The notes: a model not told the origin generated them from the sequence alone. A stretch of DNA of 63,413 bases from Candidatus Nanohaloarchaea archaeon (GCA_041639695.1 JBEQBQ010000005.1:1-63413); one strand, 5' to 3'; positions 26,513-50,945 are shown, counted from the first letter of the stretch. Numbers and translations are program-made.

Positions 26513-27118
26513 CTAGTTGGATGCTAGAGTCACTACTGTGCCGTTTGCTGCCTCTGCTATGAGGTTCCCGTTCTTCACGTATAGTGACCAGCCTTCGCTC
26601 GGAAGGGTTCCTGGGTCGCTGCCTGCAACATTAGTGGCTTGGTGGAGCTTTATCCTCTTTGGATTTGTCTGATTGAAGGAGAGCAGTGTTGAGCCACCAT
26701 TTGTGTCTTCGAAAACGAGTCTTCGGTTTCCAGAACCTGAGGAATCGTATCTTATGTAGTGGTCTCCAAGATCGGAGAATTTTATTTCGGTTTGGAAACC
26801 GTCAAGTTCAAGAGAGCCTGAAGTCGTACTGCCAACATTAAGATTCTGTATACTATTCAGATTACTTGAATTAAGGCTTATGTCTGATCCTGAGCTGGAT
26901 AAGCCGCTTTTAGTCAGTTTTAATCCGGATGCTGAAGCTATTCCCATGGCCCCGATTCCGGCAGCGCCTGCTCCCAGCTTCTTGATAAACTTGCGCCGAG
27001 AAATCTCTTGATCTTCCTGTTTCTCATCGTTTTTCAGCTTGGATTTAAGCTTCCGGTTTTCTTTTTCGAGTTCGCCAACCCTCTCCGCAAGCTTCTCAAC
27101 TTTTTCTTCTAAGTCCAT
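26513..27118 (-). CDS. Coiled-coil + twin-arginine signal + tail-fibre-like tip protein (paralog A)
   Basis: N-terminal heptads, SRRKFIKK plus Gly/Ala h-region and ASA; C-terminus LYVKNGNLIAEAANGTVVTL resembles phage tail-fibre ends. Confidence 0.7.
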   Translation of the reverse strand: MDLEEKVEKLAERVGELEKENRKLKSKLKNDEKQEDQEISRRKFIKKLGAGAAGIGAMGIASASGLKLTKSGLSSSGSDISLNSSNLNSIQNLNVGSTTSGSLELDGFQTEIKFSDLGDHYIRYDSSGSGNRRLVFEDTNGGSTLLSFNQTNPKRIKLHQATNVAGSDPGTLPSEGWSLYVKNGNLIAEAANGTVVTLASN

Positions 27119-27191
27119 GTTCTAGAACTACTCAACGTGGTTAAAATGTATGGCGGTAATTAGAATTGAAGAAGAAATGATAGGAGAGAAC

Positions 27192-27629
27192 TTATTCGTC
27201 TCTCTCGTACTTCCAGTCCTCAGGAATGTTTCCTTCTTCCCTGTGGTAGTCTGCGATTCTGCGGATCTTTGCCTCGGTTAATTCGAGGTTTCTCTGCGCA
27301 TCTTCGTCCTTAGGATTCTCTTCAACGTGATCCTGGATCGATTCAGCTTTCTCAAGAAGGTTCTTCAAGTCCTCTGGGACTTCAAGCTCTAGGCCTTCGT
27401 CCTCAAGAATCTCTGTAACCTTCATGTCTGTAACCTGTTTGACTGAAGGGATTCCGTACTGGTCTCTTAGCTTCATGCCGATCTGTGAAGGGTCGTCTCC
27501 GTTCCTTCTCAGCTTGACGACAAGGTCTTTGACCTCTTCCTCGTCGTACTCGACCCAGCGCGGGTTTTTCTTGTTAACGGGTTTATCAGAACCTGAAGAT
27601 CCTCTTCCTTTAGAGTGCATTCGTGACAT
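27192..27629 (-). CDS. rps15: 30S ribosomal protein uS15
   Basis: MSRMHSKGRGSSGS, IGMKLRDQYGIP, PEDL and EAKIRR motifs; SD GGTGA upstream. Confidence 0.97.
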   Translation of the reverse strand: MSRMHSKGRGSSGSDKPVNKKNPRWVEYDEEEVKDLVVKLRRNGDDPSQIGMKLRDQYGIPSVKQVTDMKVTEILEDEGLELEVPEDLKNLLEKAESIQDHVEENPKDEDAQRNLELTEAKIRRIADYHREEGNIPEDWKYERDE

Positions 27630-27757
27630 TATTAGTTTCACCTGATCCGGCTAAGCTCTCACCTCACCGGTCTTAAGTCTGAGTTCTCGGTAAAACTTTT
27701 TAACTGTGGAACGAAATGCGCCGAACCTTTTAATCTTGGACGTCCTATGAAGAAAAC

Positions 27758-28216
27758 ATGAACAAACTCGAAAAACAAATTCTCAGGGTCTGGGTTCTTG
27801 GTTCGCTGCTTTTCGCTGTTTTTCTCGGCTTCATAACTGAGATAGCGGCCAGAATAGGTCTTGAAATGCCGTGGCTTGGAGTTGCCGTGTTCGCATTCTC
27901 CGGCGTGACTGGAACTGTCTACAGTCTTTACAGGTACAAGAACTGGGGGTACGAGAAAAAAGAAGGTTATCTGTATCTGGAACACGGTGTTCTGCGGAAG
28001 GTGAAGTCCATGGTTCCCCACGTCAGGATACAGCACGTTGACTCCCAAAGAAGCGTGGTGGACAGGATTTTCGGTCTCTCAAGTGTTGTGGTTTATACTG
28101 CCGGAAGTAGAGGTGCCGATGTAACTATCCCTGGTTTGATGCCTAAAGATGCGGAAGAGCTACAATCTTATCTCAGAAAGGTTGCTATAGATTCTGAGGA
28201 CGAGGACGCAGTATGA
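27758..28216 (+). CDS. bPH_2 domain membrane protein (YdbS-like)
   Basis: Two TM helices followed by VPHVRIQHVD...FGL...YTAGS. Confidence 0.85.
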   Translation: MNKLEKQILRVWVLGSLLFAVFLGFITEIAARIGLEMPWLGVAVFAFSGVTGTVYSLYRYKNWGYEKKEGYLYLEHGVLRKVKSMVPHVRIQHVDSQRSVVDRIFGLSSVVVYTAGSRGADVTIPGLMPKDAEELQSYLRKVAIDSEDEDAV

Positions 28217-29625
28217 AACTAAGCAAAATTTCAATACCTTACAAGGCAGCGCAGAAAGCTGGTACGCTTGTCTTAATACTTGCTTTTGGGGGTTCTGGCG
28301 GGCTTCAAAGCCTCGTGATTGCATCGGCTCTCTTTGTAGTTTTAGGGTTATTGATTTTAGGTTACGAGTATCTTTACTGGAGAAATTACAGGTACGAAAT
28401 TACTGAGGACACTTTTGACATACGTTCAGGGGTTTTCCAGAAAAGGAAAAGGGAGATACCTATCCACAGAATCCAAAACGTCGATATCACCAGAAATATA
28501 GTTATCAGGCTTCTAGGACTGGCAAAAGTCAATCTCGAGACAGCGGGAGGTGGTTCTACAGAGGCATCTATCAAGTTCGTAGGACTCCAGGAAGCAAGAC
28601 GGATCCAGAAAAAAGTGAGACAACTCAAAAAGGAAGAGGCTGAAGTAGATGAGGGGGAAGATGAGAAACTTCTTTTCGAAATGGATATGCGTGAACTTTT
28701 GATAATGAGTGTTTTTTCAGTAAAAGCCCGTTCGGTAGTGCTTCTAGGGCTGCTTTTCTCGGTTGCAGGAGGCTTTATCGGCTCAGCTATAGAGAGCACA
28801 GGTTTAGGTATCACTTTAGGACTTCTGATTACTGGAGCTTTGTCAATCTTCGCGGTATGGTTCTTTAGCGCTGCGTCCAGCTTTATTCAGTATTTTGACT
28901 TCAAGCTTCACCGAAGGGATGATGCAATAGAGTATGAGAGAGGTTTGTTCAGTCGTTCAAGCGGCAGCATACCTTTCAAAAAGATCCAGACGGTTTCTTT
29001 CGAGGAAAATCCTTTGAAACGTGTTTTCGGATACTCCACGGTAAAGATCGAAACAGCAGGTTATTCGGCTGACACCGCAGCGGAGAAAGGAGCCGAGGCA
29101 GCCATTCCATTCGCAAAAAGGGATAGAGCTGTCCAACTTGCCAGAAAGATTAGAGGGTACGAGAAACTGGAGCTAGACTTGGATCAAATTCCAAAGAGAG
29201 CTATGCACCGTTACATCGGAAGATATGCTATTATCTGGTCGTCAATTATGGTTCTTGGACTATTAGTTGGTCGTTCGGTTCCGAATGTTAACTTGGTTCT
29301 GCCAGGCATGCTAGTCCTGGTTATTCCCCTAGCCGCATACTTTAAATGGAAGAATCGAGGCTTTGGAACAGATGAAGAGTTCTTCTACAGCAGGAACGGA
29401 TTCTGGAATAGAAAAACCATGGTAACTCCGTACTTCAGAGTTCAGAACTTGATGGAGTCCCAGAATGTTCTACAGAAACGTTTCAGGCTTGCAAACCTGA
29501 CACTTGATACGGCAGGCTCTGGAATTCTAGGTAATAATCCTAAAGCTATTGACTTAGATGAGGAAAAAGCCTCGGAACTGAGAAAGATAGTCTTCGAGAG
29601 ATTTGAGAGATCTCTTTATTTGTAA
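28213..29625 (+). CDS. Multi-bPH_2 domain membrane protein (YdbT-like)
   Basis: Three repeats of P..(R/K)(I/V)Q...(E/D)TAG; overlaps the YdbS-like gene by ATGA. Confidence 0.85.
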   Translation: MKLSKISIPYKAAQKAGTLVLILAFGGSGGLQSLVIASALFVVLGLLILGYEYLYWRNYRYEITEDTFDIRSGVFQKRKREIPIHRIQNVDITRNIVIRLLGLAKVNLETAGGGSTEASIKFVGLQEARRIQKKVRQLKKEEAEVDEGEDEKLLFEMDMRELLIMSVFSVKARSVVLLGLLFSVAGGFIGSAIESTGLGITLGLLITGALSIFAVWFFSAASSFIQYFDFKLHRRDDAIEYERGLFSRSSGSIPFKKIQTVSFEENPLKRVFGYSTVKIETAGYSADTAAEKGAEAAIPFAKRDRAVQLARKIRGYEKLELDLDQIPKRAMHRYIGRYAIIWSSIMVLGLLVGRSVPNVNLVLPGMLVLVIPLAAYFKWKNRGFGTDEEFFYSRNGFWNRKTMVTPYFRVQNLMESQNVLQKRFRLANLTLDTAGSGILGNNPKAIDLDEEKASELRKIVFERFERSLYL

Positions 29626-30191
29626 CGTCCTCTTTTCTCGACTTTCTCCAGTCTTCTCATAACGTCCTCTGAATTTTCATAGTTGCTGTAGCCTTCAAGG
29701 AAGCTTTGCCATGCATCGTCTGTGGCTTCCGGGTGTGAGGAGTTGAGAACTTGTTTCAGTAGGTGTATGTCAACCGCACGATCCTCGTTCCGCTCCGATC
29801 TGAAAGCCAGCCCGAAATCAATCAAAGTAACGGAGTTTTCCTGGATAATTACGTTGCTAGTGGTCAGGTCGCCGTGAATTATACCTGTGGAGTGCAGAAG
29901 CCCGATATTTTCTCCAAGATCCTTGAAGAACGCAGTATTTTTTACTTTCTCTTTCAGCATTTTCCCATCGACTTTCTCCATCTCCAGCTCGAAATCAGAT
30001 GTTTTTCCGATACCAGGAACTGAAACGTTGTGGTTTCCAGCCTCTTTAATGAGCCTTGCTTCAGTCTTTGTTCTTTCGGTTCTTAGGCGTTTGTCGAGTT
30101 CAGGGTGCCTGTAATCCTTATTCTCTCTTTTCTTGACTACTTTCTCTTCTCCTATCTCTACAGTAGCTTCGGCACCTTTCCGCTTATTCAT
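29616..30191 (-). CDS. bud32: KEOPS kinase Bud32 (standalone)
   Basis: KGAEA, YRHPELD, HGDLTTSN, IDFGL, AVD and RGRY motifs. Confidence 0.95.
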   Translation of the reverse strand: MNKRKGAEATVEIGEEKVVKKRENKDYRHPELDKRLRTERTKTEARLIKEAGNHNVSVPGIGKTSDFELEMEKVDGKMLKEKVKNTAFFKDLGENIGLLHSTGIIHGDLTTSNVIIQENSVTLIDFGLAFRSERNEDRAVDIHLLKQVLNSSHPEATDDAWQSFLEGYSNYENSEDVMRRLEKVEKRGRYK

Positions 30192-31833
30192 GTTCCTGAA
30201 GGTAACGCCTTATCTCTAAAAGGTTTCTCCTCCTGAGCTCCTCTCTATAGTTTCTGTCTTCGATCACGCCGTTAACATGTTCAACAAGCTCTTCTGACGA
30301 AAGAATGTCGGGCACATTTACGTATAGAGCTCCTTCCTCAAGAAGGCTCTTTGCTTCTAAAGAGTTGTTCGCTCTCAGTATTTTTTCGGCATCCGTCTCT
30401 AGTCCGAGTATTTTTTTCGATATCTGTTTGAACGGGATTGTTGATACTATAAGCTTTGCATCTTCCGGATTGGCTTTTTCCCAAGTTTCATCGTCCATCA
30501 CATCGCCGAAGATGTAGTTATTGTGTTTCTTCGAGAATTCCTCAATCTTTTCAGGATCGTTTTCAACCAGTATAAACTTCTGGCCTTCCTCTCTCAAGGC
30601 TTCAGCAATCTCCTTACCTTGGGTATCGTAGCCAAGAAGAATTACGTGATTTTTGAGTTCTTCAGGCAGTGAAGTTTTCTCGTTGATCTTTCTTGAATTA
30701 ACCTCTACTAGCTCGAGGCTTGAAACGTAGTTGTAGAGTTCTTCCTCGTACCGTGAGGTGTAGGAGGAAACGATCATCGTTATAGTTGCTGAAAGGATTA
30801 TCGACTGGAATATCACTGGGTTGATCGTTCCGGCGATGTGGGCCTGGATGGCAATTATTAACGCGAACTCGCTGATCTGGTCCAGACTTAAACCTGTTAG
30901 ATAGGCTGTTCTTCTGTCGTAACCGTTTATGAGGAGGCCTACGCCTGTCATTATAGGTTTTAGCAGTAGGGTTGTTGAGGTAAGAACTGCAGTAAGCAGC
31001 AGTGTTTCGAAGGTTGGAACCGCGATCAAAGCTCCCAGAGTAACGAAGAATATTGAGGAGAAGAAGTCCTTCATAGAGCCCATCGTGTCGAGTATTTCCA
31101 TGTTGTGTGGGAACTTCGAGACAGCGATTCCTGCGGCGAACGAACCAACGACAAGCGAAGAGTTGATGTACTGCGAAGTACTTATAAATAGGATGAGTAT
31201 AGATAGTGAGAAAAGGGTGATGAGTTCTCTTGAGCCTTCTGCCAGTCTCGCTATATGATCCATGAGGAACTGTCTGATCAGAAGCGCACCAACCATGGTA
31301 ACAGCAAGATAGGAGAGGTTAAGTGCTATACTCTCTGCTGTAAATCCTGAAAGTATAACTGTAATTGCAATTACTGCTACTAAGTCCTGGAAAAGCTGAA
31401 TTGCTTCAGCAAGTCTACCGTGAAGTATGTCGACACGTACCTCGCTCTTAACTAGCTCTAAGCCTACCAGTGATGAACTGAGCGCTCCTGCCAGGCTGAA
31501 ATAAAGGGAGTCGGACAGACTGAAACCTATTCCTTGAGCTACGAGGAAGAGCATAGTTCCAACAACAACAATCTGGACTAAAGCGGTCGATACTGCTTCC
31601 TCGCCCACGGTCCTGATTCTACCGAGATCGGACTTGATTCCAAAGACGAAGACGAGGAAAGCAATTCCTAGCTGAGAGAGCCCAAGTATCTCTGATTGGT
31701 TTATCCAGGTCCCTACTAGGATCCCTGCGAAGATGTAGGCCGGTATACGTGGATGAGATAGTTTTTCCAATAGGAAAATCATTATGGAGGATGCTACGAA
31801 CACGGCTGTCAGTATGGTTATTAGTTCAGACAT
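30184..31833 (-). CDS. Kef-type CPA2 cation:proton antiporter with RCK/TrkA_N domain
   Basis: LSSS, QD, FFVTLG and QISEF motifs with a C-terminal Rossmann-like RCK domain. Confidence 0.9.
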   Translation of the reverse strand: MSELITILTAVFVASSIMIFLLEKLSHPRIPAYIFAGILVGTWINQSEILGLSQLGIAFLVFVFGIKSDLGRIRTVGEEAVSTALVQIVVVGTMLFLVAQGIGFSLSDSLYFSLAGALSSSLVGLELVKSEVRVDILHGRLAEAIQLFQDLVAVIAITVILSGFTAESIALNLSYLAVTMVGALLIRQFLMDHIARLAEGSRELITLFSLSILILFISTSQYINSSLVVGSFAAGIAVSKFPHNMEILDTMGSMKDFFSSIFFVTLGALIAVPTFETLLLTAVLTSTTLLLKPIMTGVGLLINGYDRRTAYLTGLSLDQISEFALIIAIQAHIAGTINPVIFQSIILSATITMIVSSYTSRYEEELYNYVSSLELVEVNSRKINEKTSLPEELKNHVILLGYDTQGKEIAEALREEGQKFILVENDPEKIEEFSKKHNNYIFGDVMDDETWEKANPEDAKLIVSTIPFKQISKKILGLETDAEKILRANNSLEAKSLLEEGALYVNVPDILSSEELVEHVNGVIEDRNYREELRRRNLLEIRRYLQEHE

Positions 31834-33499
31834 TTTCTCGGCCTCCGTACATTATGTTTTCCACGTCTTTCTCTACCTCTTTCTTGAATAGATCTTGGTC
31901 TTCTAAAAACAGTTTAATGTAATCGCTCATCTTCTCGCCGGTTAAAATATTCCTGACGATAACGTAATGTGCGCCCATATCATAGAGGTCGGCTGCTTCA
32001 TCTATCTCGTCGGCTTTCACGAAAACAGTGGTGTCTGGGTTTACGTGTTCCAGTATTTCCCTGTTTACCTCGAATTCTGGTGCAACGCTTACAAGCATGT
32101 CTGCATTCTTCATTCCTGCCGCTCTTCTTATCTCGCTGTGCCTGAAGTCGCCGTAGATGAACTCGAAATCTGACTCGGCCAGTTCATCGACCTTTCTCGA
32201 GCTCCGGTCGACAATAACAACGTTTTCGTAATGTCTTTTCAGGTCATCTAACAGCTTTTCTGTGATTGCGTCGTAGCCTACGACGATTGCGTGGCCTTCT
32301 AGTTTCTGGATTTCTACGTCTCGTTTATCCTCTGACTTGAAACGCTCAAATAAGTGTTCAACTGTGTTGAAAAGTTCTTGGTTGTAGTTAAGCAGGTAGG
32401 ATGAGACGCCCATAGTAATAACCGCCACCAAACTAATGAAGCCGACTAATTCGTTTCCTATAAGGCCTTCTGAAAGCGCTAAGGCCCCGAGTATAAGTGA
32501 GAACTCGCTTATCTGGGTCATGTTTACCGCAGCCTTGAATGAGGTCTGTGGTGTGAACTTCATTCGATCAGTTAGCAGGAAGATTATCGCGAACTTTCCG
32601 ATTATTAGGACTGCTGAAGCAATTAATGCTTCGGTCATGTAGGCTGTTAGCTGTCCTGGAACGATTTTAAGCCCGAAATTGATGAAGAATACTGCCATGA
32701 AAATGTCTGTCAGCGGTCTTACTCGTTCCTGCAGTTCGCTGCTGTAAGGTAACTGTGCTAGGCTTAAACCTGCGAAGAAGGCGCCTATCTCCATCGAAAG
32801 ATTCAATTTTTGCGCTATGAATATTAGAGTGAAAGCCCACGCTATGCCGTGTATAAAGAAGGAATGAAGGTCTTTTGAAAGCCGTTTGAACGCTTTAGGT
32901 AAAAGATATTGGGAAGAGAGGTAGGAAAGAGCTCCTATTACGCCTATCATGGCGAAGACTTCTGCCAGCCTTACTGCGGCCTGTGTTGGAGAAGTGAGTT
33001 GGGTCGAGATAAGTGCAAGTATTATTACAACGGCAACGTCCTGTATCAATAGTATTCCGACATCGAGACGTCCTGGTAAAGATGATGATTCGTCCTTGTC
33101 TGTAAGCAGTTTTACTACTAGTGCTGTGGAGCTGAACATGGATGCGGCTCCGATAAAGACTGATTCGACTAATGTAAATCCTAGCAAGAAACCGGTTCCG
33201 GCACCTAGAGCAAAAGTTGTTACCATCTGGAAGATTCCTATTATTACTGTTGGTTTGAGAACTTCCTTGACCTTCTTGACATCAATTTCGAGACCGATTA
33301 GAAATAGTAGGAAGACCAGGCCAAGTTCAGAAAGTATCTTGGTGAGTTCAGTCTGTGCCAGCATGCCAAGGCCTACTGGTCCGAGAACCAATCCTGCAGC
33401 TATATAGCCGATTATAGTAGGCTGACGGGTCTTCCGCGCTATGAACGCAAATAATGTCGCGACCGCGATTGCAAGTCCAAAGGTTTCAAAACCAGTCAT
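31826..33499 (-). CDS. Kef-type CPA2 cation:proton antiporter with RCK/TrkA_N domain
   Basis: FLLFLIGLE, FSSTA, LLIQD, GAFFAG and QISEF motifs. Confidence 0.92.
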   Translation of the reverse strand: MTGFETFGLAIAVATLFAFIARKTRQPTIIGYIAAGLVLGPVGLGMLAQTELTKILSELGLVFLLFLIGLEIDVKKVKEVLKPTVIIGIFQMVTTFALGAGTGFLLGFTLVESVFIGAASMFSSTALVVKLLTDKDESSSLPGRLDVGILLIQDVAVVIILALISTQLTSPTQAAVRLAEVFAMIGVIGALSYLSSQYLLPKAFKRLSKDLHSFFIHGIAWAFTLIFIAQKLNLSMEIGAFFAGLSLAQLPYSSELQERVRPLTDIFMAVFFINFGLKIVPGQLTAYMTEALIASAVLIIGKFAIIFLLTDRMKFTPQTSFKAAVNMTQISEFSLILGALALSEGLIGNELVGFISLVAVITMGVSSYLLNYNQELFNTVEHLFERFKSEDKRDVEIQKLEGHAIVVGYDAITEKLLDDLKRHYENVVIVDRSSRKVDELAESDFEFIYGDFRHSEIRRAAGMKNADMLVSVAPEFEVNREILEHVNPDTTVFVKADEIDEAADLYDMGAHYVIVRNILTGEKMSDYIKLFLEDQDLFKKEVEKDVENIMYGGRENV

Positions 33500-34068: not shown

Positions 34069-34074
34069 AATTCT

Positions 34075-34866
34075 TCACCTGTCGTCCTCAAATTTAATAT
34101 CGCCTAATGACTTGCTTAACGGTACAGATCTATAGATATCGTAGAGTGCCTGCGCATCGCGGTCAAGATCATCGTAATTCTCTCTTCCATTTACTCTGCT
34201 GTAATCGGCAGGGCTGAGTACGTCTTTCAGTCCTAGGTTCTCGTTATGGAACTGAATTCTTACTTTCTTTCCGTCGCTCCAGGCATCAAAATGACTGCCT
34301 GTGTAATGACTATCGCCGAATGCTGTCTCGGTAGATAAACTGGGTTGGTTATCAAGGCCATGGATCTGAACCACTTTCTTACCGTCAATAACGTATTTTT
34401 CGACAGGATGTATTTTTTCCCTATCAAACTCTTGTGCTTCCTCTAGGCTAAATTCTTCTTCAAGTTGTTGAAGCTGAGAGTCCATCTGGCGAAGTTCGTC
34501 CTCTTCCAGTCTTACTTCTGAACCTGACGTGTAAGGGTTCAGGAGCTTGTATAAAGGGTTATCCATGTCCAAGGATTCAAGGCTCTCGTATGGTATCTGT
34601 GAGAATCTGTCCGGGGTTTCTCCACCATTAAAGATTGTTTCCATCTCTTCCGCTATCTGTGAGGGTGGAGGTCCGTCTTCGGGGTAGATGGCTGCCTCGA
34701 TGATTCCTTCTTCTTGTTTCAAGTTGATCTCCCAGCCTCCACCCATTCTTTCTTCCAAAGGCGAGCCTCTTGACAGGGTATCTATTTCAGGCCCAACTGC
34801 TGCAGCGCCTAGAAGGCTCCCGAGAAAGCTTCTACGGCTCTGCTCAAAACTGTCTTCGTCACTCAT
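34075..34866 (-). CDS. Orphan protein with twin-arginine-like N-terminus
   Basis: From the internal ATG: MSDEDSFEQSRRSFLGSLLGAAAV. ORF track 34075..34926. Confidence 0.65.
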   Translation of the reverse strand: MSDEDSFEQSRRSFLGSLLGAAAVGPEIDTLSRGSPLEERMGGGWEINLKQEEGIIEAAIYPEDGPPPSQIAEEMETIFNGGETPDRFSQIPYESLESLDMDNPLYKLLNPYTSGSEVRLEEDELRQMDSQLQQLEEEFSLEEAQEFDREKIHPVEKYVIDGKKVVQIHGLDNQPSLSTETAFGDSHYTGSHFDAWSDGKKVRIQFHNENLGLKDVLSPADYSRVNGRENYDDLDRDAQALYDIYRSVPLSKSLGDIKFEDDR

Positions 34867-34888
34867 TTCTTTAACAGGCCTTTTATTC

Positions 34889-35401
34889 TCAATAATTGTT
34901 CTCTGATATTCTTTCGAAGGTTTCAAGAGTGTCTTTCAGTTCTGATTCGTCTAGATCGTGCAGAGTTTTCCTTCCCTCCACAACATCTCGTGCGTAACCG
35001 TCCAGATTCCCCACACTTTCGTGAGGGATGTTGTAGTTACGTTCTTCTGAACCAATTCTAACTCCGATCCGTGTTCGATCTTCTCTTCGCACCCAGGAAA
35101 AACCATGTACACACCTTTGGTAAGGCTCTAATATTCTGTCCTTAGCCTCGAAAAGTGTCTCTCCTTCCTCCAAGCTGCCTTCAGAAAGCTGTTCCAGCTC
35201 CTGTGATACATCTTGCCATTCTTCCTCGGTATAGGAAGTAGGGTCATCCAGTAGTGTATGAACTCTGTCCCTATGTTCGCTTGGGATCAAGTAGCTGAAT
35301 TCTCCGTTCTGTGTCGTCACTTCTACAGCTGATACAACGGAATCAAATGTGTGGCTGTACCGGAATGCAAATGATTTCGAATTTTCTTCACGGTCTGACA
35401 T
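34889..35401 (-). CDS. Orphan acidic hypothetical protein
   Basis: 170-aa ORF with its own TATA box and palindromic site. Confidence 0.7.
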   Translation of the reverse strand: MSDREENSKSFAFRYSHTFDSVVSAVEVTTQNGEFSYLIPSEHRDRVHTLLDDPTSYTEEEWQDVSQELEQLSEGSLEEGETLFEAKDRILEPYQRCVHGFSWVRREDRTRIGVRIGSEERNYNIPHESVGNLDGYARDVVEGRKTLHDLDESELKDTLETFERISENNY

Positions 35402-35404
35402 GCC

Positions 35405-35424: not shown

Positions 35425-35449
35425 TTAAAATTCTCGGGTATAGGGAGGA

Positions 35450-39366: not shown

Positions 39367-39750
39367 TCACAGGTTCTGTGAACGCCTGTTCACAACCTCG
39401 AGATGGTTGCTCTGCCGGATAATGATGACGGGATTGCCCTTCTCGAGGATCCTCTGTTTCAGTTCCCTGTCGTTTGTGGCGATGACATACTCGTCCGAGA
39501 GCTCCACTAGCAGGTCATCTACGGTTCCTTCTCCCTCGGTCTCCAAAATTTCAATGGACTGCTCCTCCAGGAACTTTTCCACGAGCTGTCCGTACTTGCC
39601 TTTCTCGATGCTCTTCGCCTCCTGCACCGCATCGTCGATAGTGTAGAGCTCGTGGAAAGGGTAGAGTCTCTCGATCTCGTCGAACAGAGAGAACGAGAGC
39701 TGGAACGGCGCCACGAGAAAGTTCGTGTCGAGTATGATTTTGGGGTCCAT
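39367..39750 (-). CDS. PIN domain protein (Fcf1/Utp24-like)
   Basis: ILDTNFL, VDD and ATNDRELK motifs; conserved position upstream of rpoE1. Confidence 0.9.
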   Translation of the reverse strand: MDPKIILDTNFLVAPFQLSFSLFDEIERLYPFHELYTIDDAVQEAKSIEKGKYGQLVEKFLEEQSIEILETEGEGTVDDLLVELSDEYVIATNDRELKQRILEKGNPVIIIRQSNHLEVVNRRSQNL

Positions 39751-39753
39751 TTT

Positions 39754-40845
39754 TTACGTTCTCCATTCTTTCGAGGTGCTGTTGATGGTTTTGTTTCCTT
39801 CTTCCGTTATGACTACTGTGTTCTCGACTTTTACTCCGAAATCTTCTCTCAGGTAAATTCCTGGTTCAATCGTTAACACCATGCCTGGCTTTAATTCTTG
39901 TTCGTTTCCTCTTACTACTGAAGGTCTTTCGTGTGTTGATCGGCCAAGGCCATGCCCTGTCGAAGTAATGTAGTTGTCGCCGTAACCTTTTTCTTCTATA
40001 AAACTTCTGGCGGCATCCCCAACGGATCCTGCTGTATTTCCTGGCTTAGCTTTATCAAGCGCTTTTTCGTAACCCTTATTAACTGTTTTAAATAAATCTT
40101 TGAACTTTTTGGAAGGTTCTCCGCTAAAGACCAAGGTTCTGGCGCAATCGCTGCAATAATTTTCGTATGTTGTACCTATATCGAGCACTACAGGCTCACC
40201 TTCTTCTATAACTTTGTCTCCTGGCTTATGAAATACTTCGGAGCCGTTCTCTCCAGCCGCTACTATAGGTCTGAACGCGGGCTCTTCACCTCCTTTCTCT
40301 CGAAACTTTGATAATATGAGATCTGCGACTTCCTTCTCGGTCATTCCAATCACGTCTTCAGATCTGAGATCCTCTATAACAAGGTCGGTTATCTCCGCCG
40401 CCTTTTCAAGTACTTCAATTTCTTCGGGCAACTTTTCCTGTTTAAGCTCCTGTAGAAGGTTTTCACCGCTTTCTGTGCATCTATCTAGTTTTTCCTCGAT
40501 CTTTCTGCCATGTGCATGGTACATGAAGTCGTCTAGAAGCACTTTTCCTTCGGTCTGACCAAAGTATGATTTTATAGTATCGTATGCTTTTTTAGGGCTC
40601 TGCCAGACCTCTATACTGTCTATGTATGAGTGGTTCTCCAGCTGTTCCTCCATTAGTTTGGGGGCCACGAACATTGGTTCCTTCGCTGGTGAGAGCAACA
40701 GGAAGACTTCGAAAGCCTTCTTCTCGTACTCAAAGCCAGATAGGTATCCCATGTCGGGACCTACGGAAATCACCATTCCCGCAGCTTCTTGCTGGTTTAT
40801 TTTCTTTTTGAGTTTCTTCTGTCTCTTCAGGACAGTCTTTTTCAT
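39754..40845 (-). CDS. M24 family Xaa-Pro peptidase
   Basis: LDIG, SDCART, GHGLG..THE, IEPG and VEN metal ligands. Start at ATG 40845 is preferred. Confidence 0.92.
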   Translation of the reverse strand: MKKTVLKRQKKLKKKINQQEAAGMVISVGPDMGYLSGFEYEKKAFEVFLLLSPAKEPMFVAPKLMEEQLENHSYIDSIEVWQSPKKAYDTIKSYFGQTEGKVLLDDFMYHAHGRKIEEKLDRCTESGENLLQELKQEKLPEEIEVLEKAAEITDLVIEDLRSEDVIGMTEKEVADLILSKFREKGGEEPAFRPIVAAGENGSEVFHKPGDKVIEEGEPVVLDIGTTYENYCSDCARTLVFSGEPSKKFKDLFKTVNKGYEKALDKAKPGNTAGSVGDAARSFIEEKGYGDNYITSTGHGLGRSTHERPSVVRGNEQELKPGMVLTIEPGIYLREDFGVKVENTVVITEEGNKTINSTSKEWRT

Positions 40846-41660: not shown

Positions 41661-41703
41661 CCCGGGCTGAACACTAATAAATCCGGTCGACTGAGTAATT
41701 TCT

Positions 41704-42639
41704 ATGTTCAATCTGGCCTCGCTGTGGGACGACGCGGTAAGCGACTGGGAGCTAGAAGAACCGTTCTCGAAGCAACAATACAACAAAGATTACGAGCACT
41801 ACTCTAAACTGGCAGAGCAAAAAGACGCGAAACTGTTCCTCGCACATTATACTTGGTATAAGGACGGCGAGATGCAGAAAGCCTTCACCTATGAAAATGG
41901 AAAATGGAGGAAAGTCCACAATATCGAGGTTGATGGCGTCTGGGATGCATTCAAGATTAACGAGGAGACTATGAGAATAAAGAAGGAAATGAAGCAAAGG
42001 CACGTGATGATTAATCGGCCGGACGTAGATAAACTGTGTAAAGACAAGCTTGAGACTTATGAGAAGTTCAGCGAACTTGTTCCCGAAACCAAGAAGGCTT
42101 CAGAAACGAATGTGGAAGAAATAATCGAAAGATACGGCAGAGCTGTCGTGAAACCGAGAGATGACTGGGGCGGCGAAGGCGTACAGCTAGTAGAAAATAC
42201 CTCAGAGTTCGAAGGAGAACCTGAAGAATGGCTGGTACAGGAGTTCGTTGATGCTTCGGAAGGAATCTCCCAACTCGGAGTAGAGGGAATACATGACCTC
42301 AGGGCTTTAGTCGTGAACGGCGATGTTATAACCGGTTTCCTGAGGCAGCCGGATGAAGGCTTCGTCAGTAACGTCCACCAGGGAGGAAGCATTGAAGTAG
42401 TTAAAGTTGAGGAGTTTCCTGAAGAAGCTCTGGAGAAAGTTGAAAAGGTGAAGGAAGAGATGTCGGATCTTGAACCGTATCTCATGACGGTAGATATGAT
42501 CTACGATTCGAAGACAGAGAAGTTCAGGGTGCTGGAGCTCAACTCCAAGCCGGGCATGAGCTTCTACGGTAGAGAGGATATGAAGAAAGCAAAGTCGGCG
42601 ATAGCCGAAACTTTATACGAGGCTTTCAAAAGAGGCTAA
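41704..42639 (+). CDS. ATP-grasp ligase (RimK/GshB-like)
   Basis: CKDK, VVKPRDDWGGEGV, LVQEFV, DLR, SNVHQGG and ELNSKPG motifs. Confidence 0.9.
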   Translation: MFNLASLWDDAVSDWELEEPFSKQQYNKDYEHYSKLAEQKDAKLFLAHYTWYKDGEMQKAFTYENGKWRKVHNIEVDGVWDAFKINEETMRIKKEMKQRHVMINRPDVDKLCKDKLETYEKFSELVPETKKASETNVEEIIERYGRAVVKPRDDWGGEGVQLVENTSEFEGEPEEWLVQEFVDASEGISQLGVEGIHDLRALVVNGDVITGFLRQPDEGFVSNVHQGGSIEVVKVEEFPEEALEKVEKVKEEMSDLEPYLMTVDMIYDSKTEKFRVLELNSKPGMSFYGREDMKKAKSAIAETLYEAFKRG

Positions 42640-42642
42640 ACT

Positions 42643-44439: not shown

Positions 44440-45245
44440 TTTTCACCCTCCTTCAGCAACTTCGCGATCGTTTCGTGGACGTTTTTTCCGCCAGCGTCCG
44501 AGAAAAGTTCTAGATTGGGATTAGGATTAATATCGAATAATTGCTCTCCCCGCAGCTTTACCTCTGCTACGGAGGTGCCTAGAGAGTTCATACAGTCCCG
44601 TATCTTTTTCTCCTTCGAATCTGAAATGTTCGAGTACTTGGGGCTCTCATCTTTGAACTTCCATGAGTCCGAGTTATCCTTAAGCGATATTATTTCGTCT
44701 CCAATAACTAGACAACGGTATTTCTCTCCTTTATCGTAGTTCTGGAATAGCAGCACATCGTCCTCGTATTCAGTTCCTTCGGCAAAGCTTTGAATGTCTT
44801 CGACAGTATCCAGTTTTCTTCTTTCCGTCTCTTCAAGGTTTTCCAGCTTTCTTCCTACTAAAGGAGGTTCAACCTGTTTGTGGACGTTTCTAGCTGCTTT
44901 CTCGGTCGGTACTACAACGGTGTTAGGTGAATTGATGCCTCGTTTTTTCAATACGTAGTAGAGATAATTTTTCTTTGAAAGAGCGAAGAAGCAAGTTGAG
45001 GAAATACTGGTCTTGACTCCTTTTTCTTCAGCCATTTCAAGAAGTACTCTTCCGAAGACGGCGTTCCTTGGATTTATCCTTACGAAAACAGCGTCATATT
45101 TGTCAATACTGTTTCCGTTCACTCTGACGTCTTTCTCTCCCTTGATTACTTCGGGTGCGATTCGATCCAGTTTCTTGTGGTCTACCTCGTCGAAGAAAGG
45201 TTCGAATTCCTCTATTGGTTCTTCAGCTATTGTCAGAAGTTTGAT
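44436..45245 (-). CDS. Degenerate RimK-like ATP-grasp protein (probable ATC start)
   Basis: The frame stays open 41 codons upstream of the track's GTG. IKLLTI...FFDEV...YDAVFVR aligns with neighbour MKLGII...IFDSV...FDAIYIR. Gly loop is lost and DINPNP replaces EVN. Confidence 0.75.
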   Translation of the reverse strand: MKLLTIAEEPIEEFEPFFDEVDHKKLDRIAPEVIKGEKDVRVNGNSIDKYDAVFVRINPRNAVFGRVLLEMAEEKGVKTSISSTCFFALSKKNYLYYVLKKRGINSPNTVVVPTEKAARNVHKQVEPPLVGRKLENLEETERRKLDTVEDIQSFAEGTEYEDDVLLFQNYDKGEKYRCLVIGDEIISLKDNSDSWKFKDESPKYSNISDSKEKKIRDCMNSLGTSVAEVKLRGEQLFDINPNPNLELFSDAGGKNVHETIAKLLKEGEK

Positions 45246-45251
45246 TGTGGA

Positions 45252-46748
45252 TCAATCCTCGTTGGGAGACCATAGATGTGTCACATCTCCGTTTTTCCGC
45301 CATTTCTCCATGTAGCTTGAAACGGATTCGGGCATGCTCTCCTGCATAAGTCTTCCCTGTCTCATAATCTTTGTAAGCCTCGACTCGAGGGTCTTCGAAA
45401 GCTCATCGTAATAGTTTCTATCGGAGTAGATCAGGTCATTCTTGATTCTCCAGAAAGCTGTTGTGCCCTGAGGTGCTAAGACGTAGTAACCTGAATCTTC
45501 AGCGATCGCTTTACGTAGTTTTTCTCTTTCAACATAGTATACTCCGGCATCTTTCACAGGATCTACAACCAGAATCTCTCTGTTTTCAACTCCGACACAA
45601 AGCACGAACTGCTCGCCATCTGACTCAGGGAAGATCTTACTTTTCTCGATAGTCATAGATACTAGGCCGCCATCGTTGAACCATGTTTTGAGTTCGGCAG
45701 CAAGATCCGTTATTTTGTCTTTCTCAACAAATGCTGTCTTCACTTCTGACTCTGTGGCTTGAGAAACCGCTTCCTCGATCTCTTCAGGGCTTGAACTTTC
45801 TATCTTCTGGCTTATTTGTTTCTGGGTAGCCCTGTAGCCGAAGATTTCGAGAGCCATAACTATAGAGGCCGGACCCGAGGTCTCCGTGCCTTCAGCAACA
45901 AAGTACTCCTTAATATCTTCAAGAGTTTCAAGGTCGCTCTGCGTTCTCTTGAACGCCATCTTCGAATCCATCATTCTCTGGTTAGGTACAACTATTGTTC
46001 TTCCTTCCATAGTGTCAAGGCTTGTGCTAAACAGTGAGACTTTCTGGACTTCTGCTATTTCTCCATCAATCTCTGCTTCCTCCCCAGGCCTAACATTTCT
46101 AGTGTTTTTCAAGTAGATGCCTGCAGCATAGTTTTCAAACAGGTCCTTGAATCCGTAGAAGACAAGTCCTGCGATTAGGAATGCTGCGGCCCAAGAAGAC
46201 GCGGTTACAAGCTCATCAACGAAAGTGCTTCCTATGTTAAGCTCTGTCAGAGCAAGCTGCATCAACAATAGGTATAGGAATCCTTTGAGGAGGCCTCCAA
46301 GAAGATCGATCGAGCCGCCGGAAAGCCCTAGCTCGTTCATGTAGCTTTCAGTTCCAAGGTTTCTCAACATTTCTCTACTTAGTCTAGTCGCCAAGTTAAT
46401 GGCTATAAAGCCCAGTACCGCCACTAGCACAGCTGATAGCACTCTCGGCACGTAGCCGGAGAGGCTGGAAAGCACCTGTGTGGATAAACCAGTATTAATA
46501 TAGAGAAGTGCAAGTAGAAGGACTCCTGCATCAAGAATGTATGAGAGGTATTCAAGTACTTCGTAACGGTTCTCAACATCTTTCTTTGTCAGGTCCTGGC
46601 TCCGGTTAGCCCAGTACTTTCTTCCTAGAATGTTTACGAGTTTCACGCCGAGATGCCCCATCACAAGTATCAGGAGTGCGACACCGGTACGTACCAACGG
46701 GTTTTGCCCCATTCCAAAGTCTAGGAGAGAAGCTAGTAACTGGGCCAT
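45252..46748 (-). CDS. MscS-family mechanosensitive channel fused to an inactive C39 peptidase-like domain
   Basis: TM helices, FKDLFENYAAGIYL and VVPNQ (MscS), then SGPASIVMALEIFG...QFVLCVG...VVDP (C39-like, lacking catalytic Cys and His). Confidence 0.8.
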   Translation of the reverse strand: MAQLLASLLDFGMGQNPLVRTGVALLILVMGHLGVKLVNILGRKYWANRSQDLTKKDVENRYEVLEYLSYILDAGVLLLALLYINTGLSTQVLSSLSGYVPRVLSAVLVAVLGFIAINLATRLSREMLRNLGTESYMNELGLSGGSIDLLGGLLKGFLYLLLMQLALTELNIGSTFVDELVTASSWAAAFLIAGLVFYGFKDLFENYAAGIYLKNTRNVRPGEEAEIDGEIAEVQKVSLFSTSLDTMEGRTIVVPNQRMMDSKMAFKRTQSDLETLEDIKEYFVAEGTETSGPASIVMALEIFGYRATQKQISQKIESSSPEEIEEAVSQATESEVKTAFVEKDKITDLAAELKTWFNDGGLVSMTIEKSKIFPESDGEQFVLCVGVENREILVVDPVKDAGVYYVEREKLRKAIAEDSGYYVLAPQGTTAFWRIKNDLIYSDRNYYDELSKTLESRLTKIMRQGRLMQESMPESVSSYMEKWRKNGDVTHLWSPNED

Positions 46749-46789
46749 ATAATTAGTTCATCCTCCTTCAGCCTATAAAAAACCGTGTG

Positions 46790-47980
46790 TCATTCTTTCG
46801 ACACGATCTCTCCATGGCCGATAAGACGCCATCTAGAGCCTATCTGGCGTGAAATCGCGACCCTGTCACCTTCTTCTGCGCATACAGGCACTTTCAAGTC
46901 GACTTTAATCCTGTCGCCGGCTTGAGTTACGTAACCTGCTGACTTGCCTGTGCCAACGTTAAGCATCAAAGGTTCTTTCTCCTTTATGTTCTCGATCTCT
47001 TGCTCGTTCTCAGAACCGACCAAACGGTCCATCAGCTCTACGTCCACAGTTATATTGTAAGTGACTTCTGGAAGTTCGCCTTCACGTCCCATAACGTTTC
47101 CTGAAAGCCCGTCCGATTTACCAAGTGAAGGATCTAATTTTGTTTCGACTGCTAGAAGCCCTCCAGGCTTGCCTTTCTCCACAGGGTTTCCTCCATGGAA
47201 AATGTTGGATACTTCTGTCTTTACAGGCTCCCATTCGTCTTCGCCGACTTTTACTCCAGGTCGGATCTCCACCTTTTCGCCTTTCTCAAGCTCGCCTTTT
47301 GTCAGCGAACCGCCTACTACTCCGCCTTTTATGTCGGATATATCACTGCCAGGCTTGTTGATGTCAAAAGACCTTGCGAGAAGCATTTTTGGATCTGCTC
47401 CGTTATCTCTTTCCGGAGTGGGAATCTCTTCATCTACTGCTTCAAGTAATGCGTCAATATTAACCTGTTGCTGTGCAGAAACAGGGATGATAGGTGCGTC
47501 CTCTGCTACAGAGCCTTCCAAGAACTCTTGAATTTGCTCGTAGTTCTCTCGAGCTTCCTCTTTTGATACTTTATCGATCTTGTTCTGAACAACCACGATG
47601 TTTTCTACTCCCGCAATATCTAGAGCGGCAAGGTGCTCACGTGTCTGTGGCTGAGGACATTCCTCATCGGCAGCAACTAGAAGGATTGCACCGTCCATTA
47701 TTGCTGCGCCGGATAGTACGTTTGCCATCAGTGTCTCGTGTCCTGGTGCATCGACAAGAGAAACTGTTCTCTCTACATCTCCGTCTCCGTCGACGTTCAG
47801 CTCTCCGTCATCATTATAGTATGTGATGTCGGCGTATCCGAGCTTGATAGTGATACCTCTCTTCAGCTCTTCTGAGTGTTCGTCAGTCCATTTGCCTGAG
47901 AGAGCGTTTGTCAGGGTTGTCTTTCCGTGGTCTACGTGGCCTACAAGCCCGATGTTTACCTCGGGTATTTTGTCAGTCAT
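46790..47980 (-). CDS. eif2g: Translation initiation factor aIF2 gamma
   Basis: [27 protein letters not shown] and RWRLIG motifs. Confidence 0.97.
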
Positions 47981-48243
47981 AGTATAATTTCATCCTCCGG
48001 AACCTTGATAGTCTTTTCTTCGTTTGAAAGTCTGTACTTCTTGGAGGGGGAGAACGTAAAACTCTCCTCCACCTTGTACAGATTGTCTTCGTGAGTTACT
48101 CTGTCGCCTTCCTTGAACTGGAAGCCTCGTAATATTTCTATGTAGGACTCCACTTCCTGTGCGTAAGGTAGGGAGCCTACCTGTCTTTCCAGTTTGTTTG
48201 TCTTTCTATGGAGGCTTCGGTACCAGGATTCGTTCCTCGTCAT
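47977..48243 (-). CDS. Small hypothetical protein (SH3/KOW-like C-terminus)
   Basis: 88-aa ORF coupled to both neighbours by ATGA overlaps; contains FKEGDRV. Confidence 0.7.
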
Positions 48244-48614
48244 TCCTCTTCTTCGTCTGAGAGTAGTTCTTCGATCGTTTCAGATCCTTCTTCAACAACT
48301 GTGGTGTTGAGTTGTTCGATTGCGTCCGATACCGTGTTTCCTCTTACGGACTTTCTTCTTCTCTCTCCTTTCTCTTTTGAGTCGATTCCTGCGCCTTCTT
48401 CTAGGAGGATTCTACGTCTTCCAGTTCCTTCGATTGATTCTCTCATCGGGAAGCCTTGCTTGTCGCTCCCGCCAGTGATCTCCAGTTTGTAACCTTCTAG
48501 GCCGATAATTCCGCCGTCAAAGCTTTCTCCTATCTTTTTTCCTGCAAGTTTTGAGGATTCTTCGGTTTCGATCTGATGTGTATTTCCGTCGTTGTCTCCG
48601 ACTGTAACCTTCAT
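48240..48614 (-). CDS. rps6e: 30S ribosomal protein eS6
   Basis: GKKIG, ITGGSDKQGFPMR and GERRRKSVRGN motifs. Confidence 0.97.
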   Translation of the reverse strand: MKVTVGDNDGNTHQIETEESSKLAGKKIGESFDGGIIGLEGYKLEITGGSDKQGFPMRESIEGTGRRRILLEEGAGIDSKEKGERRRKSVRGNTVSDAIEQLNTTVVEEGSETIEELLSDEEEE

Positions 48615-48719
48615 TATTTGTTCACCTTTGCTCAGTTCTGTTAGTTCCGAGCATCAAAGACCGGACTTCTAAGCTTTAAATATGAACACTTTTTATTCAG
48701 GCCCTTGGAAATACCGGTT

Positions 48720-50144
48720 ATGAGGAGTTCAGTGATTGATGATGTTATTGGAAGCTTCCTGAAGATATATTCGCTGGTGCTTCTCGTACCGTTTTTCGTC
48801 GGTATTTACTTCATGGATTCTGTTCTTACCGTGGCCGGTTTTGGACTTGCTTCAGTGGTTTCTCTAGGTCTTGGTTTAGGGCTTTCCGGTTCTGAAGAAA
48901 AACCGACTGTTTCAGAGGCGATGTTCGCAACTGTGCTAGGATGGGTACTCGCTATTATTCTCGGGGCTATACCTTTCATGAACCACGTTCCTATGATTGA
49001 CGCGATCTTTGAATCGAGCGCCGGGCTGACAACAACAGGTATTTCGCTGGTTCTCGAGCCTTCAAATCTTCCACAGTCTCTACTGTTTTGGAGAGGTTTC
49101 TCCCAGTGGATCGGCGGCCTAGGAATACTAACGTTCTTCATAGCAGTTGTCAGGGAATCCGGTGGTGTAACAAGGAGACTTTACTCCGCTGAGTCACACA
49201 AGACGGATTCGGGTTCAATAAGGCCTTCACTCAAAAAATCAATAGTTGATCTGTGGAAAGTTTACGGAGTAATGACGGTCTTGTTCGGTTTGATTTATCT
49301 CGGGCTTGGTATGTCAATCTTCGACTCCATCATGCATGTGTTCTCTGGTATATCGACTGGAGGATTCTCCACACAGGCAGCAAGTATCGGAGGCTTCTCT
49401 CTAGGCGTGCAGCTTGCTACAATACCGTTGATGCTTCTTGGCGGTGTCAACTTCGTGCTGCTGTTTAAACTTTTGAAGGCTGATATTAGGCCTTTGCTTG
49501 GCAGCTCCGAGTTCAAGTTGTATATGATGATCTTCGCAGCGGTAGCCTTAATGACCTCTACAGAACTATTTGTTGCATCAGGAAGTGCTCTAAGCTCTCT
49601 TCTACAGGGCAGCTTCAAGTCGGCAGCAGTGCTTTCCTCAACCGGTTACTCCACATTCTCCATCACCTCTCTTTCAGTAGCGTTACAAGTTGTTTTCTTA
49701 GCAGTCATGTTTGTTGGTGGTTCTCTAGGATCTACATCTGGAGGTTGGAAGGTCTTCAGGTTGAAAACTATGTATGAATCGTTAAAGGTTCGGCTGAGAG
49801 GCTACAAACTTCCGGAATCGGCAATCAACAAGGTAAAGATCGATGGGGAGATTGTCAACAACTCGACGGTTAGAACGATCTCAGTACTCTTCTTTACGTG
49901 GATCTCGATGATCTTCATATCCTCGCTTCTGGTTTTAGTGGCTGACGGTACAAGTTTCATGGCAGCGCTATCAGGTTCAATTTCAGCCGCGGGCAACATG
50001 GGCCCGGTCTACATGTCAGGAAATGAAATGCTGGCGCTTTCCGGGTTCACAAAACTTGTCTGGAGTTTCTTGATGCTTGCCGGCCGTCTGGAGATGCTTC
50101 CTTTACTCGCTATATTCAATACTGAGATGCTTAGCGGCGAGTGA
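48720..50144 (+). CDS. trkH: Trk potassium uptake membrane protein
   Basis: TTTG, QWIGGLG, STGGFS, GGSLGSTSGG.K, NMGP and MLAGRLE motifs. Confidence 0.95.
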   Translation: MRSSVIDDVIGSFLKIYSLVLLVPFFVGIYFMDSVLTVAGFGLASVVSLGLGLGLSGSEEKPTVSEAMFATVLGWVLAIILGAIPFMNHVPMIDAIFESSAGLTTTGISLVLEPSNLPQSLLFWRGFSQWIGGLGILTFFIAVVRESGGVTRRLYSAESHKTDSGSIRPSLKKSIVDLWKVYGVMTVLFGLIYLGLGMSIFDSIMHVFSGISTGGFSTQAASIGGFSLGVQLATIPLMLLGGVNFVLLFKLLKADIRPLLGSSEFKLYMMIFAAVALMTSTELFVASGSALSSLLQGSFKSAAVLSSTGYSTFSITSLSVALQVVFLAVMFVGGSLGSTSGGWKVFRLKTMYESLKVRLRGYKLPESAINKVKIDGEIVNNSTVRTISVLFFTWISMIFISSLLVLVADGTSFMAALSGSISAAGNMGPVYMSGNEMLALSGFTKLVWSFLMLAGRLEMLPLLAIFNTEMLSGE

Positions 50145-50177
50145 ATTTTTAAACTCAGACTATAATCTATACCTTTT

Positions 50178-50945
50178 ATGGAAGATAAAATAGAGAAATT
50201 GATCGAGGAAAAGGTCGAAGAAAGAGTCAGTGAGAGAGAGGAAGAGATCGAGAAACGTGTTGCGGAAAGAGTCAGGAAGAACCTTTCTCAAAACGGAAAA
50301 ACCTCTTTAAACCAGGAAATTTCCCGTAGAGGTTTTTTGAAGAAGGCTGGTTTGGGTGCTGCTGGTCTTGGTGTTCTTGGTATTTCTTCTGCTTCCGGTT
50401 TGAAGTTGACGGAGAGTGGTGTTTTTACTTCTGGTTCTAGAACCGGTGTTTTGACGAACTCGGGGACCGACACGGACGGTGGTGACGACTACCAGTTCCC
50501 CAACGCTGCGGACAACATCGACCTTCAAAATGACGGTTCGCTTAGGAATGTTGAGTCGGTCGATACTGACCACTTAGCTGGCAATGGTCGGCCTTATGCA
50601 ATTAACAACGACCTGTCAGACAGGACACGCACTTTGGTTGAGAGTGGAGAATCGACTCGCACGACCAAGACTTTGGTTGATTTGACCGATGGCCCTGGAG
50701 TTGTTTTAACGGCCTCTATTAGCGGCTACCAAATCCGCTCTCCCTCAACCGGCGAATATCACGGAGCGGACATTACTGTCGACGGAGTCACGACAGTGGT
50801 TTCCGGGGCACGGTCGCAAGACTCTGATGGCTCGGCACGCTCAACTTGGCAAATTGGCCCCGTCAAGTACGATAATAGTTGTAAAATAGAGTATGATCAC
50901 TCCGGAAGTGGTAATATCATCGTCGCTATTGCTGAGTCAATCTGA
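50178..50945 (+). CDS. Coiled-coil + twin-arginine signal + variable beta-rich tip protein (paralog B)
   Basis: SRRGFLKK plus h-region and SASGLKLT; 30/42 identical to 26513..27118 over that block, unrelated afterwards. Confidence 0.75.
   Translation: MEDKIEKLIEEKVEERVSEREEEIEKRVAERVRKNLSQNGKTSLNQEISRRGFLKKAGLGAAGLGVLGISSASGLKLTESGVFTSGSRTGVLTNSGTDTDGGDDYQFPNAADNIDLQNDGSLRNVESVDTDHLAGNGRPYAINNDLSDRTRTLVESGESTRTTKTLVDLTDGPGVVLTASISGYQIRSPSTGEYHGADITVDGVTTVVSGARSQDSDGSARSTWQIGPVKYDNSCKIEYDHSGSGNIIVAIAESI

Follow-up and report, generated by a model that had tools for sequence, protein, structure and literature searches.

Genes A and B lie in a stretch of 63,413 nucleotides from Candidatus Nanohaloarchaea archaeon (GCA_041639695.1 JBEQBQ010000005.1:1-63413). 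This stretch, hereafter the window, is contig C5 of a genome (G000) of 971,360 bp in 38 contigs, which is 89% complete. The two genes are probably members of a large family of phage-tail-fiber-like surface or secreted proteins, which are exported through twin-arginine translocation (Tat) as oligomers, probably trimers, and which carry exchangeable C-terminal tips. The basis is the common architecture, the copy number, the presence of tatA and tatC and their synteny with family genes, the homology of certain paralog tips to tail fibers, and the presence or absence of the genes in the manner of cassettes. Oligomerization is predicted from a model of A, and the tips may mediate attachment to, or recognition of, host haloarchaea or other cells.

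A is flanked by a DHH/DHHA1 (RecJ-like, recJ) gene and the gene for uS15, and B by the genes for TrkH and TrkA (trkH and trkA). These domain assignments match the neighbors given in an earlier note on this DNA. Both open reading frames (ORFs) are present, and they share the architecture described there: a charged helix, a Tat signal and a GLKLTxSG strand, after which they diverge. In BLASTP, A and B show 41/92 identities (E 2e-17), limited to the N-terminal ~90 residues. A recount of the 42-residue block gives the same 30 identical residues as before. Past the block, the sole aligned piece is an 8/10 stretch (E 0.028). The likeness of A and B is far beyond chance, because the module recurs in 30 six-frame ORFs of the genome at E values from 4.5e-23 to 2.7e-13. 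The note also held the C-termini to be unrelated. This is correct for A against B after the block, but across the family 19 of the 30 tips are joined by mosaic similarity.

A profile of the block, which the note had proposed as a check, was searched against all six-frame ORFs of the genome and against relatives. It finds 30 members with diverse C-termini here, and the next ORF is at E 0.037; many copies with differing C-termini are what the note had named as support for its reading. They amount to 7,256 codons, or 2.2% of the genome. Elsewhere, the profile of the N-terminal module retrieves 440 representative proteins at E ≤ 0.001 (186 at ≤ 1e-10) among 1.84 billion, and the module is at or near the protein N-terminus in all 150 among the matches listed. 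In the phylum, 22 of 69 other genomes carry the module (E ≤ 1e-6), with a maximum of 10 copies versus 30 here. The single-protein locus search returns one "Candidatus Nanohaloarchaea archaeon" metagenome-assembled genome (MAG), plus a spurious Tat-signal match in a bacterial Persicitalea MAG. The nucleotide identity of the block between paralogs is 51% at the median and 75% at the maximum, which rejects recent duplication or gene conversion as its source. Identical residues in the block use the same codon in only 32% of cases. These two facts indicate that the block is maintained by protein-level selection. No description of the family was found in the literature searched, which comprised main texts in part, supplements excluded.

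The Tat consensus SRRxFLK seen in the earlier note is confirmed by NCBIfam TIGR01409 (TAT_signal_seq), where the cut-off is 16.7 bits and A and B reach 20.5 and 24.0 bits. All 28 of the 28 paralogs aligned keep R-R-x-F without change. The hydrophobic region (h-region) is 17–19 residues long across the family, with a mean hydropathy of 1.0–1.7. It ends in a small-x-small motif (SAS, SVS, AAS, PTS, PAS or similar) in 27 of the 30 members, and is directly followed by the conserved strand [GSA]-L-K-L-T-x-N-G. The arginine pair (RR) is at residues 41–42 in A, at 50–51 in B, and 40–62 residues from the protein start in the family, with a conserved amphipathic zipper ahead of it. The TatFind rule places RR in roughly the first 35 residues. 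A and B fall outside this range, and TatFind would miss the family proteins because RR sits behind the prefix. What sets the family apart among Tat substrates, judged from the sequences, is an RR pair far from the terminus.

The prefix before the block has 36 residues in A and 45 in B, and 52–59% of them are charged. Pfam gives sub-threshold leucine-zipper-like (bZIP/ZapB) matches only. AlphaFold2 predicts a helix at residues 3–55 of A, with a predicted local distance difference test (pLDDT) score of 94–98 across the first 30 residues, and at residues 2–40 of B (pLDDT 78–88). In the genome, 25 of the 30 members have a prefix of at least 30 aa; at least 11 prefixes are GCN4-like zippers with a core Asn, and eight are of the "KVEER" type. 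The same length is reached by 127 of the 131 external representatives with an RR motif (155 proteins were collected, of which 134 are external). TATA-like boxes are found 25–35 nt 5′ of the prefix ATG. A later start codon removing the prefix is ruled out, as A contains no ATG, GTG or TTG between the first ATG and RR; most paralogs have no alternative start there, or rare alternatives only. The TATA-like boxes and the lack of an alternative start in A indicate that the prefix is translated. Its protein sequence is conserved across genera, though synonymous sites in the adjoining block are saturated.

The translocase is encoded in the same genome. tatA is located at C2:40515-40655 (TatA, 44.1 bits) and tatC at C2:40757-41374 (TatC, 184.3 bits), both above the cut-offs. 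Family genes are found directly upstream (C2:38115-39023 and 39561-40103) and directly downstream (C2:41531-41794 and 42294-42572) of this pair; the gene at C2:38115-39023 is one of the tail-fiber-positive paralogs. The earlier suggestion that the signal could be read by the Tat system of the host is unnecessary, since the genome has its own tatA and tatC, which adjoin family genes. Right after tatC there is a 2.5-kb segment specific to G000 (C2:41411-43878; L031:5412-7879), with two short, possibly truncated family members and ORFs with fiber-like and Gly-rich sequence. Two archaeal signal peptidase I genes (C4:5001-5435 and C2:59216-59425) are present, neither adjoining family genes.

In the phylum, the family is present in 16 of the 19 other tatC-positive genomes and in six of the 50 tatC-negative ones; these 69 genomes are related, so the contrast does not amount to a statistical test. 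The three tatC-positive genomes without the family are 71–79% complete. Of the 16 genomes having both, 11 have a family gene no more than ~5 kb away from tatC. In G021 the order is tatA, tatC, an ORF of 145 aa and a family member of 390 aa. In G010, of the same taxonomic family, eight to ten family genes carry RR signals and tail-fiber-like "DADTVDG" motifs, and tatC was not found; either an assembly gap or a different translocase arrangement would explain this. In the available parts of genome surveys, Tat in the phylum is described as patchy or "likely inactive" (PMC10266531, PMC9765267). A crude regular-expression scan of the genome finds only ~6 further proteins that are plausible as Tat substrates, including two lipoproteins, so the family would form the bulk of the Tat cargo. 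One of these ~6 candidates is in the window, at 34078..34935 (-); this ORF has a Tat-like start (SRRSFLGSLLGAAAVG) and is outside the family.

The tips are diverse, and some have relatives among phage proteins. The tip of L025 matches a tail fiber (phrog_8469, E 3.8e-29) and a tail collar fiber (E 1e-21) in PHROGs, as well as 418 phage records, among which a tail protein of an archaeal Caudoviricetes scores best (43%, E 8e-29). It also matches the solved tail fibers 9qgo, 6ov6 and 9nxk, each deposited as three chains. L004 matches the tail fiber phrog_1980 (E 5.8e-9), and L024 matches an Acinetobacter phage tail fiber. In PHROGs, L018 (E 1.8e-9), L020 (E 3e-7) and L024 (E 2.7e-10) match a common viral family of unknown function, and L003 and L029 match other viral families. 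Pfam matches of the tips are near-threshold only: Peptidase_S74 (20.5 bits, cut-off 22), Collar (20.7, cut-off 24), Gp10_C, BclA_C and Phage_depo_C. In L004 (C13:29358-30449, -), the near-threshold Peptidase_S74 intramolecular-chaperone domain covers residues 253–298, and a second coiled coil comes after it at the C-terminus (ILRDLVARIEKLEEKVE). In a set of 145 representatives that includes some G000 paralogs, handfuls have tail-fiber PHROGs, Laminin_G_3, S74, Collar or beta-propellers, and most have nothing known.

In the BLAST comparison of the 30 C-terminal regions, 19 are in one mosaic network, B is grouped with two paralogs, and A is alone. The module at residues 90–128 of B is also seen in the paralog C2:69027 and in four metagenomic proteins that otherwise differ, three of which also start with a short coil and an RR signal. 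P0008 (metagenomic, 403 aa) has this module in mid-protein and lacks the N-terminal coil and the Tat signal, indicating that the module travels outside the family too. The tail-fiber nature of the tips stands for those paralogs whose tips are homologous to tail-fiber, tail-collar and chaperone modules. It does not extend to the tips of A and B, which match nothing in the phage searches given below, and the likeness of the C-terminus of A to phage tail fibers, as given in the earlier note, found no backing. A likeness of the tip of A to its own paralogs, seen by eye, was rejected by hhalign (probability 0.2% against an eight-paralog profile). The ESM Atlas clusters of phage-derived "hypothetical" proteins (A 0.91, B 0.77) lend no support, as they are within the range of shuffled proteins.

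A trimer prediction, also proposed in the note, was run on A with the paralog alignment. Three copies of A reach an ipSAE of 0.72 (runs 0.73/0.71/0.72) versus 0.00 for the best of three controls, with a pLDDT of 62–64 and at least 77% of the contacts common to the runs. The coiled-coil a/d residues are in contact: in each of the three chains, the confident interface holds exactly the heptad positions L3, V7, L10, V14, L17, N21, L24 and L28. The intertwined residues 66–118 and parts of the tip belong to it as well. The model supports a predicted three-stranded fiber for A.

Several points weigh against a family of trimeric, tail-fiber-like Tat substrates. Of 30 proteins solved as pairs, 20 attain the ipSAE mark, as does one of 23 solved as single chains, but this calibration used two copies and other alignments, and A was modeled as three copies only. 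The pLDDT of the trimer is only 62–64. The monomer models are too poor for a fold to be assigned: the mean pLDDT is 62.7 for A, with ~50 in the tip, and 47.9 for B as a whole. The core "a" position N21 of A is an Asn, which is typical of dimeric GCN4-like zippers. For the tip of A, nothing significant comes up in PHROGs (best E 0.0054), in phage genomes, among PDB sequences or in a search of 5.8 billion proteins, and the tip of B has no significant match in PHROGs, phage genomes (tblastn) or PDB sequences. With the patterns used, neither the N-terminal module nor B and its shared module has a relative in IMG/VR viral contigs. Finally, the six family-bearing genomes without detected tatC include G010 (eight copies, 90% complete) and G007 (97% complete).

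If A and B are such proteins, the following process could be considered. Each gene would be a compact cassette with its own promoter. The charged coiled coil of 20–60 aa before the signal would zip the chains in the cytoplasm and set their register. The canonical twin-arginine signal would then be read by the TatA and TatC of the cell, and the folded oligomer would be exported before cleavage. After the small-x-small signal-peptidase site, at which the zipper may be removed with the signal peptide, the conserved beta-strand GLKLTxNG would act as a common docking or shaft-nucleating element. The variable C-terminal tip would give binding specificity.

A different fate of the strand can be imagined from tafi, the Tat-dependent filaments of Haloarcula hispanica. 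The family proteins would then be subunits or tip adhesins of a thin fimbria, in which the cleaved GLKLTxNG inserts as a donor strand into the neighboring subunit and the C-termini are alternative tips. In the available part of PMC11821415, haloarchaeal proteins with ~40 TafA-like N-terminal residues and unrelated C-termini are described, together with a laminin-G tip subunit. The alternating hydrophobic residues of the strand (L-K-L-T), right after the predicted cleavage site, and Laminin_G_3 in two external family members would fit this arrangement. Yet scans of the family, made without a TafA sequence for direct comparison, detected no TafA-like fold or family. Neither signal peptidase gene lies beside family genes, and TafA as described in PMC11821415 lacks a coiled coil ahead of the signal. 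Trimeric tail-fiber modules are homologous to several of the tips, and A is modeled as an intertwined trimer, not as a linear chain. Fimbriae of this kind are considered unlikely.

It is likewise improbable that the family proteins are signal-anchored membrane proteins, with an uncleaved Tat signal, the h-region as an N-in/C-out anchor and the cytoplasmic coiled coil as a handle for oligomerization or docking, as in Tat-inserted Rieske proteins. One unbroken AlphaFold2 helix runs from the prefix through RR into the h-region of A, and the conservation of the prefix across genera is simpler to understand if it persists in the mature protein. However, a short, Gly/Ala-rich and weakly hydrophobic h-region, as seen here, is typical of cleavable Tat signals and not of anchors. 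The peptidase motif at the end of 27 of 30 h-regions also argues for cleavage, and a membrane-tethered tip of 120 aa would hardly reach beyond the cell envelope.

The genomic distribution is that of single genes. Cassette A is missing between recJ and uS15 in G002, a genome of the same genus, where 24 unrelated bases are found. Cassette B is missing between trkH and trkA in both G002 (25 unrelated bases) and G001 (83 bases). The flanks are 78–90% identical between G002 and G000. All 17 dispersed members checked (of 30), in 15 segments, are absent at the syntenic G002 sites; besides A and B, C9 contributes four of these copies, C2 three, and C12, C3, C6 and C8 two apiece. Between the flanks, G002 has at most 171 unrelated bases at 14 of the 15 segments, and 1.1 kb of unrelated DNA at C3:49733. 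The segments are minimal, consisting of a promoter of 40–60 nt, the ORF and often a tail of 14–50 nt. Because all 17 are absent from the same sites in G002, the members behave as compact single-gene cassettes.

The paralogs are much more diverged than the cassette flanks. Based on this, the likelier origin is uptake from a broader pool of genes, not duplication in place, and loss in G002 is the remaining alternative. The tip of B and the 253 nt 3′ of gene B (50946..51198) have a G+C content of 0.51–0.57 compared with ~0.455 in the genome, which hints at a foreign origin of cassette B. The lone tat-adjacent family gene of G002 (C1:85929-86437) matches pieces of C2:38115 and C2:39561, and looks like a mosaic, consistent with module shuffling. 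Only the tat-adjacent gene of G000 has such a partial counterpart in that genome. Transposon-like ends were not found: 14 junction pairs have no common terminal repeats or target duplications, apart from one 4-bp AAAC overlap. The junction with this clean overlap belongs to the cassette C12:18429-19501 (L056:1930-3002), which starts 2 nt after the 3′ end of tRNA-Leu(TAA). A diversity-generating retroelement is rejected by the lack of a reverse transcriptase (PF00078) in the 89%-complete genome.

The tail-fiber, tail-collar and S74 homology of some paralogs, the cassette-like and lineage-specific distribution and the cassette beside tRNA-Leu could also point to virus-derived genes with a virus-related role (provirus remnants, tailocin-like fibers, or decoys or exclusion proteins that hinder viral attachment) instead of host recognition, but this is very unlikely, given that the copies are single genes among housekeeping genes outside tail modules, that the N-terminal module is without a match in IMG/VR with the patterns used, and that different genera keep its link to the cellular tatAC operon, although proviruses may lie elsewhere in the genome, no search for capsid or terminase genes having been made.

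With the genes read as a family of Tat-exported tail-fiber-like proteins, a further step can be speculated, tentatively and with some doubt. The leader might be a distinct nanohaloarchaeal class of export signal ("zipper-Tat"), in which a disposable leucine zipper pre-assembles trimeric tail-fiber-like proteins in the cytoplasm and Tat exports the finished fibers. The zipper would be an N-terminal counterpart of the cleaved S74 chaperone of phage fibers, and the Tat system of this lineage would serve mainly this family. The fibers would be stocked as a library of single-gene cassettes, each with a promoter, which come and go at intergenic sites (30 here, two in the congener), giving the symbiont a rapidly exchangeable repertoire for host recognition.

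Table 1. Positions of genes A and B, their parts and their cassettes in the window.
Feature	Position	Strand	Description
Cassette A	26486..27171	-	686 bp: gene A, 47–53 nt upstream, ~25 nt downstream; TATA-like ATTTTAA ~30 nt before ATG
Gene A	26513..27118	-	ORF, 201 aa
A residues 1–36	27011..27118	-	Charged leucine-zipper-like prefix; heptad core L3 V7 L10 V14 L17 N21 L24 L28
A residues 37–64	26927..27010	-	Tat signal: QEISRRKFIKK, Gly/Ala-rich 17-residue h-region, small-x-small end (ASAS)
A residues 65–78	26885..26926	-	GLKLTKSGLSSSGS, conserved start of presumed mature protein
A residues 79–201	26516..26884	-	Beta-rich tip, no detectable relatives; contacts all three chains in the trimer model
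Cassette B	50122..51198	+	1077 bp: gene B, 56 nt upstream (TATA-like ATTTTTAAA), 253 nt downstream
Gene B	50178..50945	+	ORF, 255 aa
B residues 1–45	50178..50312	+	Charged helical prefix, "KVEER" type
B residues 46–73	50313..50396	+	Tat signal: QEISRRGFLKK, h-region ending SSAS
B residues 74–87	50397..50438	+	GLKLTESGVFTSGS, conserved N-terminal strand of presumed mature protein
B residues 90–128	50445..50561	+	Shuffled module (SGTDTDGGDDYQxPNAADNIDLQ...), ~40 residues
B residues 129–255	50562..50942	+	Tip; sole similar protein P0005 (metagenomic), 39% over 153 residues; no family assignment

The single sequencing run containing the locus is a hypersaline-lake metagenome, which may be its source, and no RNA run with the locus is listed.

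It is still debated by what means DPANN symbionts, nanohaloarchaea among them, locate their hosts and stay attached to them. So far, the focus has been on LamG proteins and on giant proteins of the SPEARE type (PMC10266531). If the proposal is true, the family would give the Tat system of the phylum a clear job, and the RR pair far from the N-terminus would explain why Tat substrates have been overlooked there. In addition, it would supply a defined set of candidates for recognition proteins that are modular in the way of viruses and open to testing. As an element, the coiled coil ahead of the signal would be simple and transplantable. The cassette pattern, with 17 of 17 checked dispersed copies absent in the congener, points to a mode of flux by single genes in very small genomes.

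Among known systems, phage tail fibers and receptor-binding proteins (T4 gp12/gp10-type collar fibers and S74-chaperone fibers) show the same modular plan, with a conserved N-terminus and mosaic, exchangeable tips. Some paralogs are directly homologous to them, A is predicted as a trimer, and one paralog has a C-terminal S74-like chaperone. In contrast to phage fibers, the family consists of cellular genes dispersed among housekeeping genes. Its copies are not set in virion tail modules but are single-gene cassettes, with recJ and uS15 on either side of A, and trkH and trkA on either side of B. The N-terminus is a coiled coil with a Tat signal and not a baseplate-attachment domain, and the tips of A and B are without homology.

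The tafi of Haloarcula hispanica (TafA/TafC/TafE) share with the family the Tat-dependent export of a surface structure in a hypersaline archaeon. According to the available part of PMC11821415, they also have a conserved N-terminus of ~40 residues over unrelated C-termini and a conserved strand after the cleavage site. As likened by this description, tafi differ in lacking a pre-signal coiled coil, in their proposed linear donor-strand filaments and in a dedicated taf operon with a signal peptidase. The family genes are dispersed and partly tail-fiber-like.

Canonical haloarchaeal Tat signals have the same S-R-R-x-F-L-K, a weakly hydrophobic h-region, a small-x-small c-region and TatA/TatC, while RR in the family is 40–62 residues in, behind the amphipathic zipper. 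Trimeric autotransporter and other coiled-coil adhesins follow the same logic, in which a coiled coil sets the register and the heads vary. Their coiled coil is in the exported stalk, whereas that of the family precedes the signal and would thus stay in the cytoplasm or be cut off, and the export route differs.

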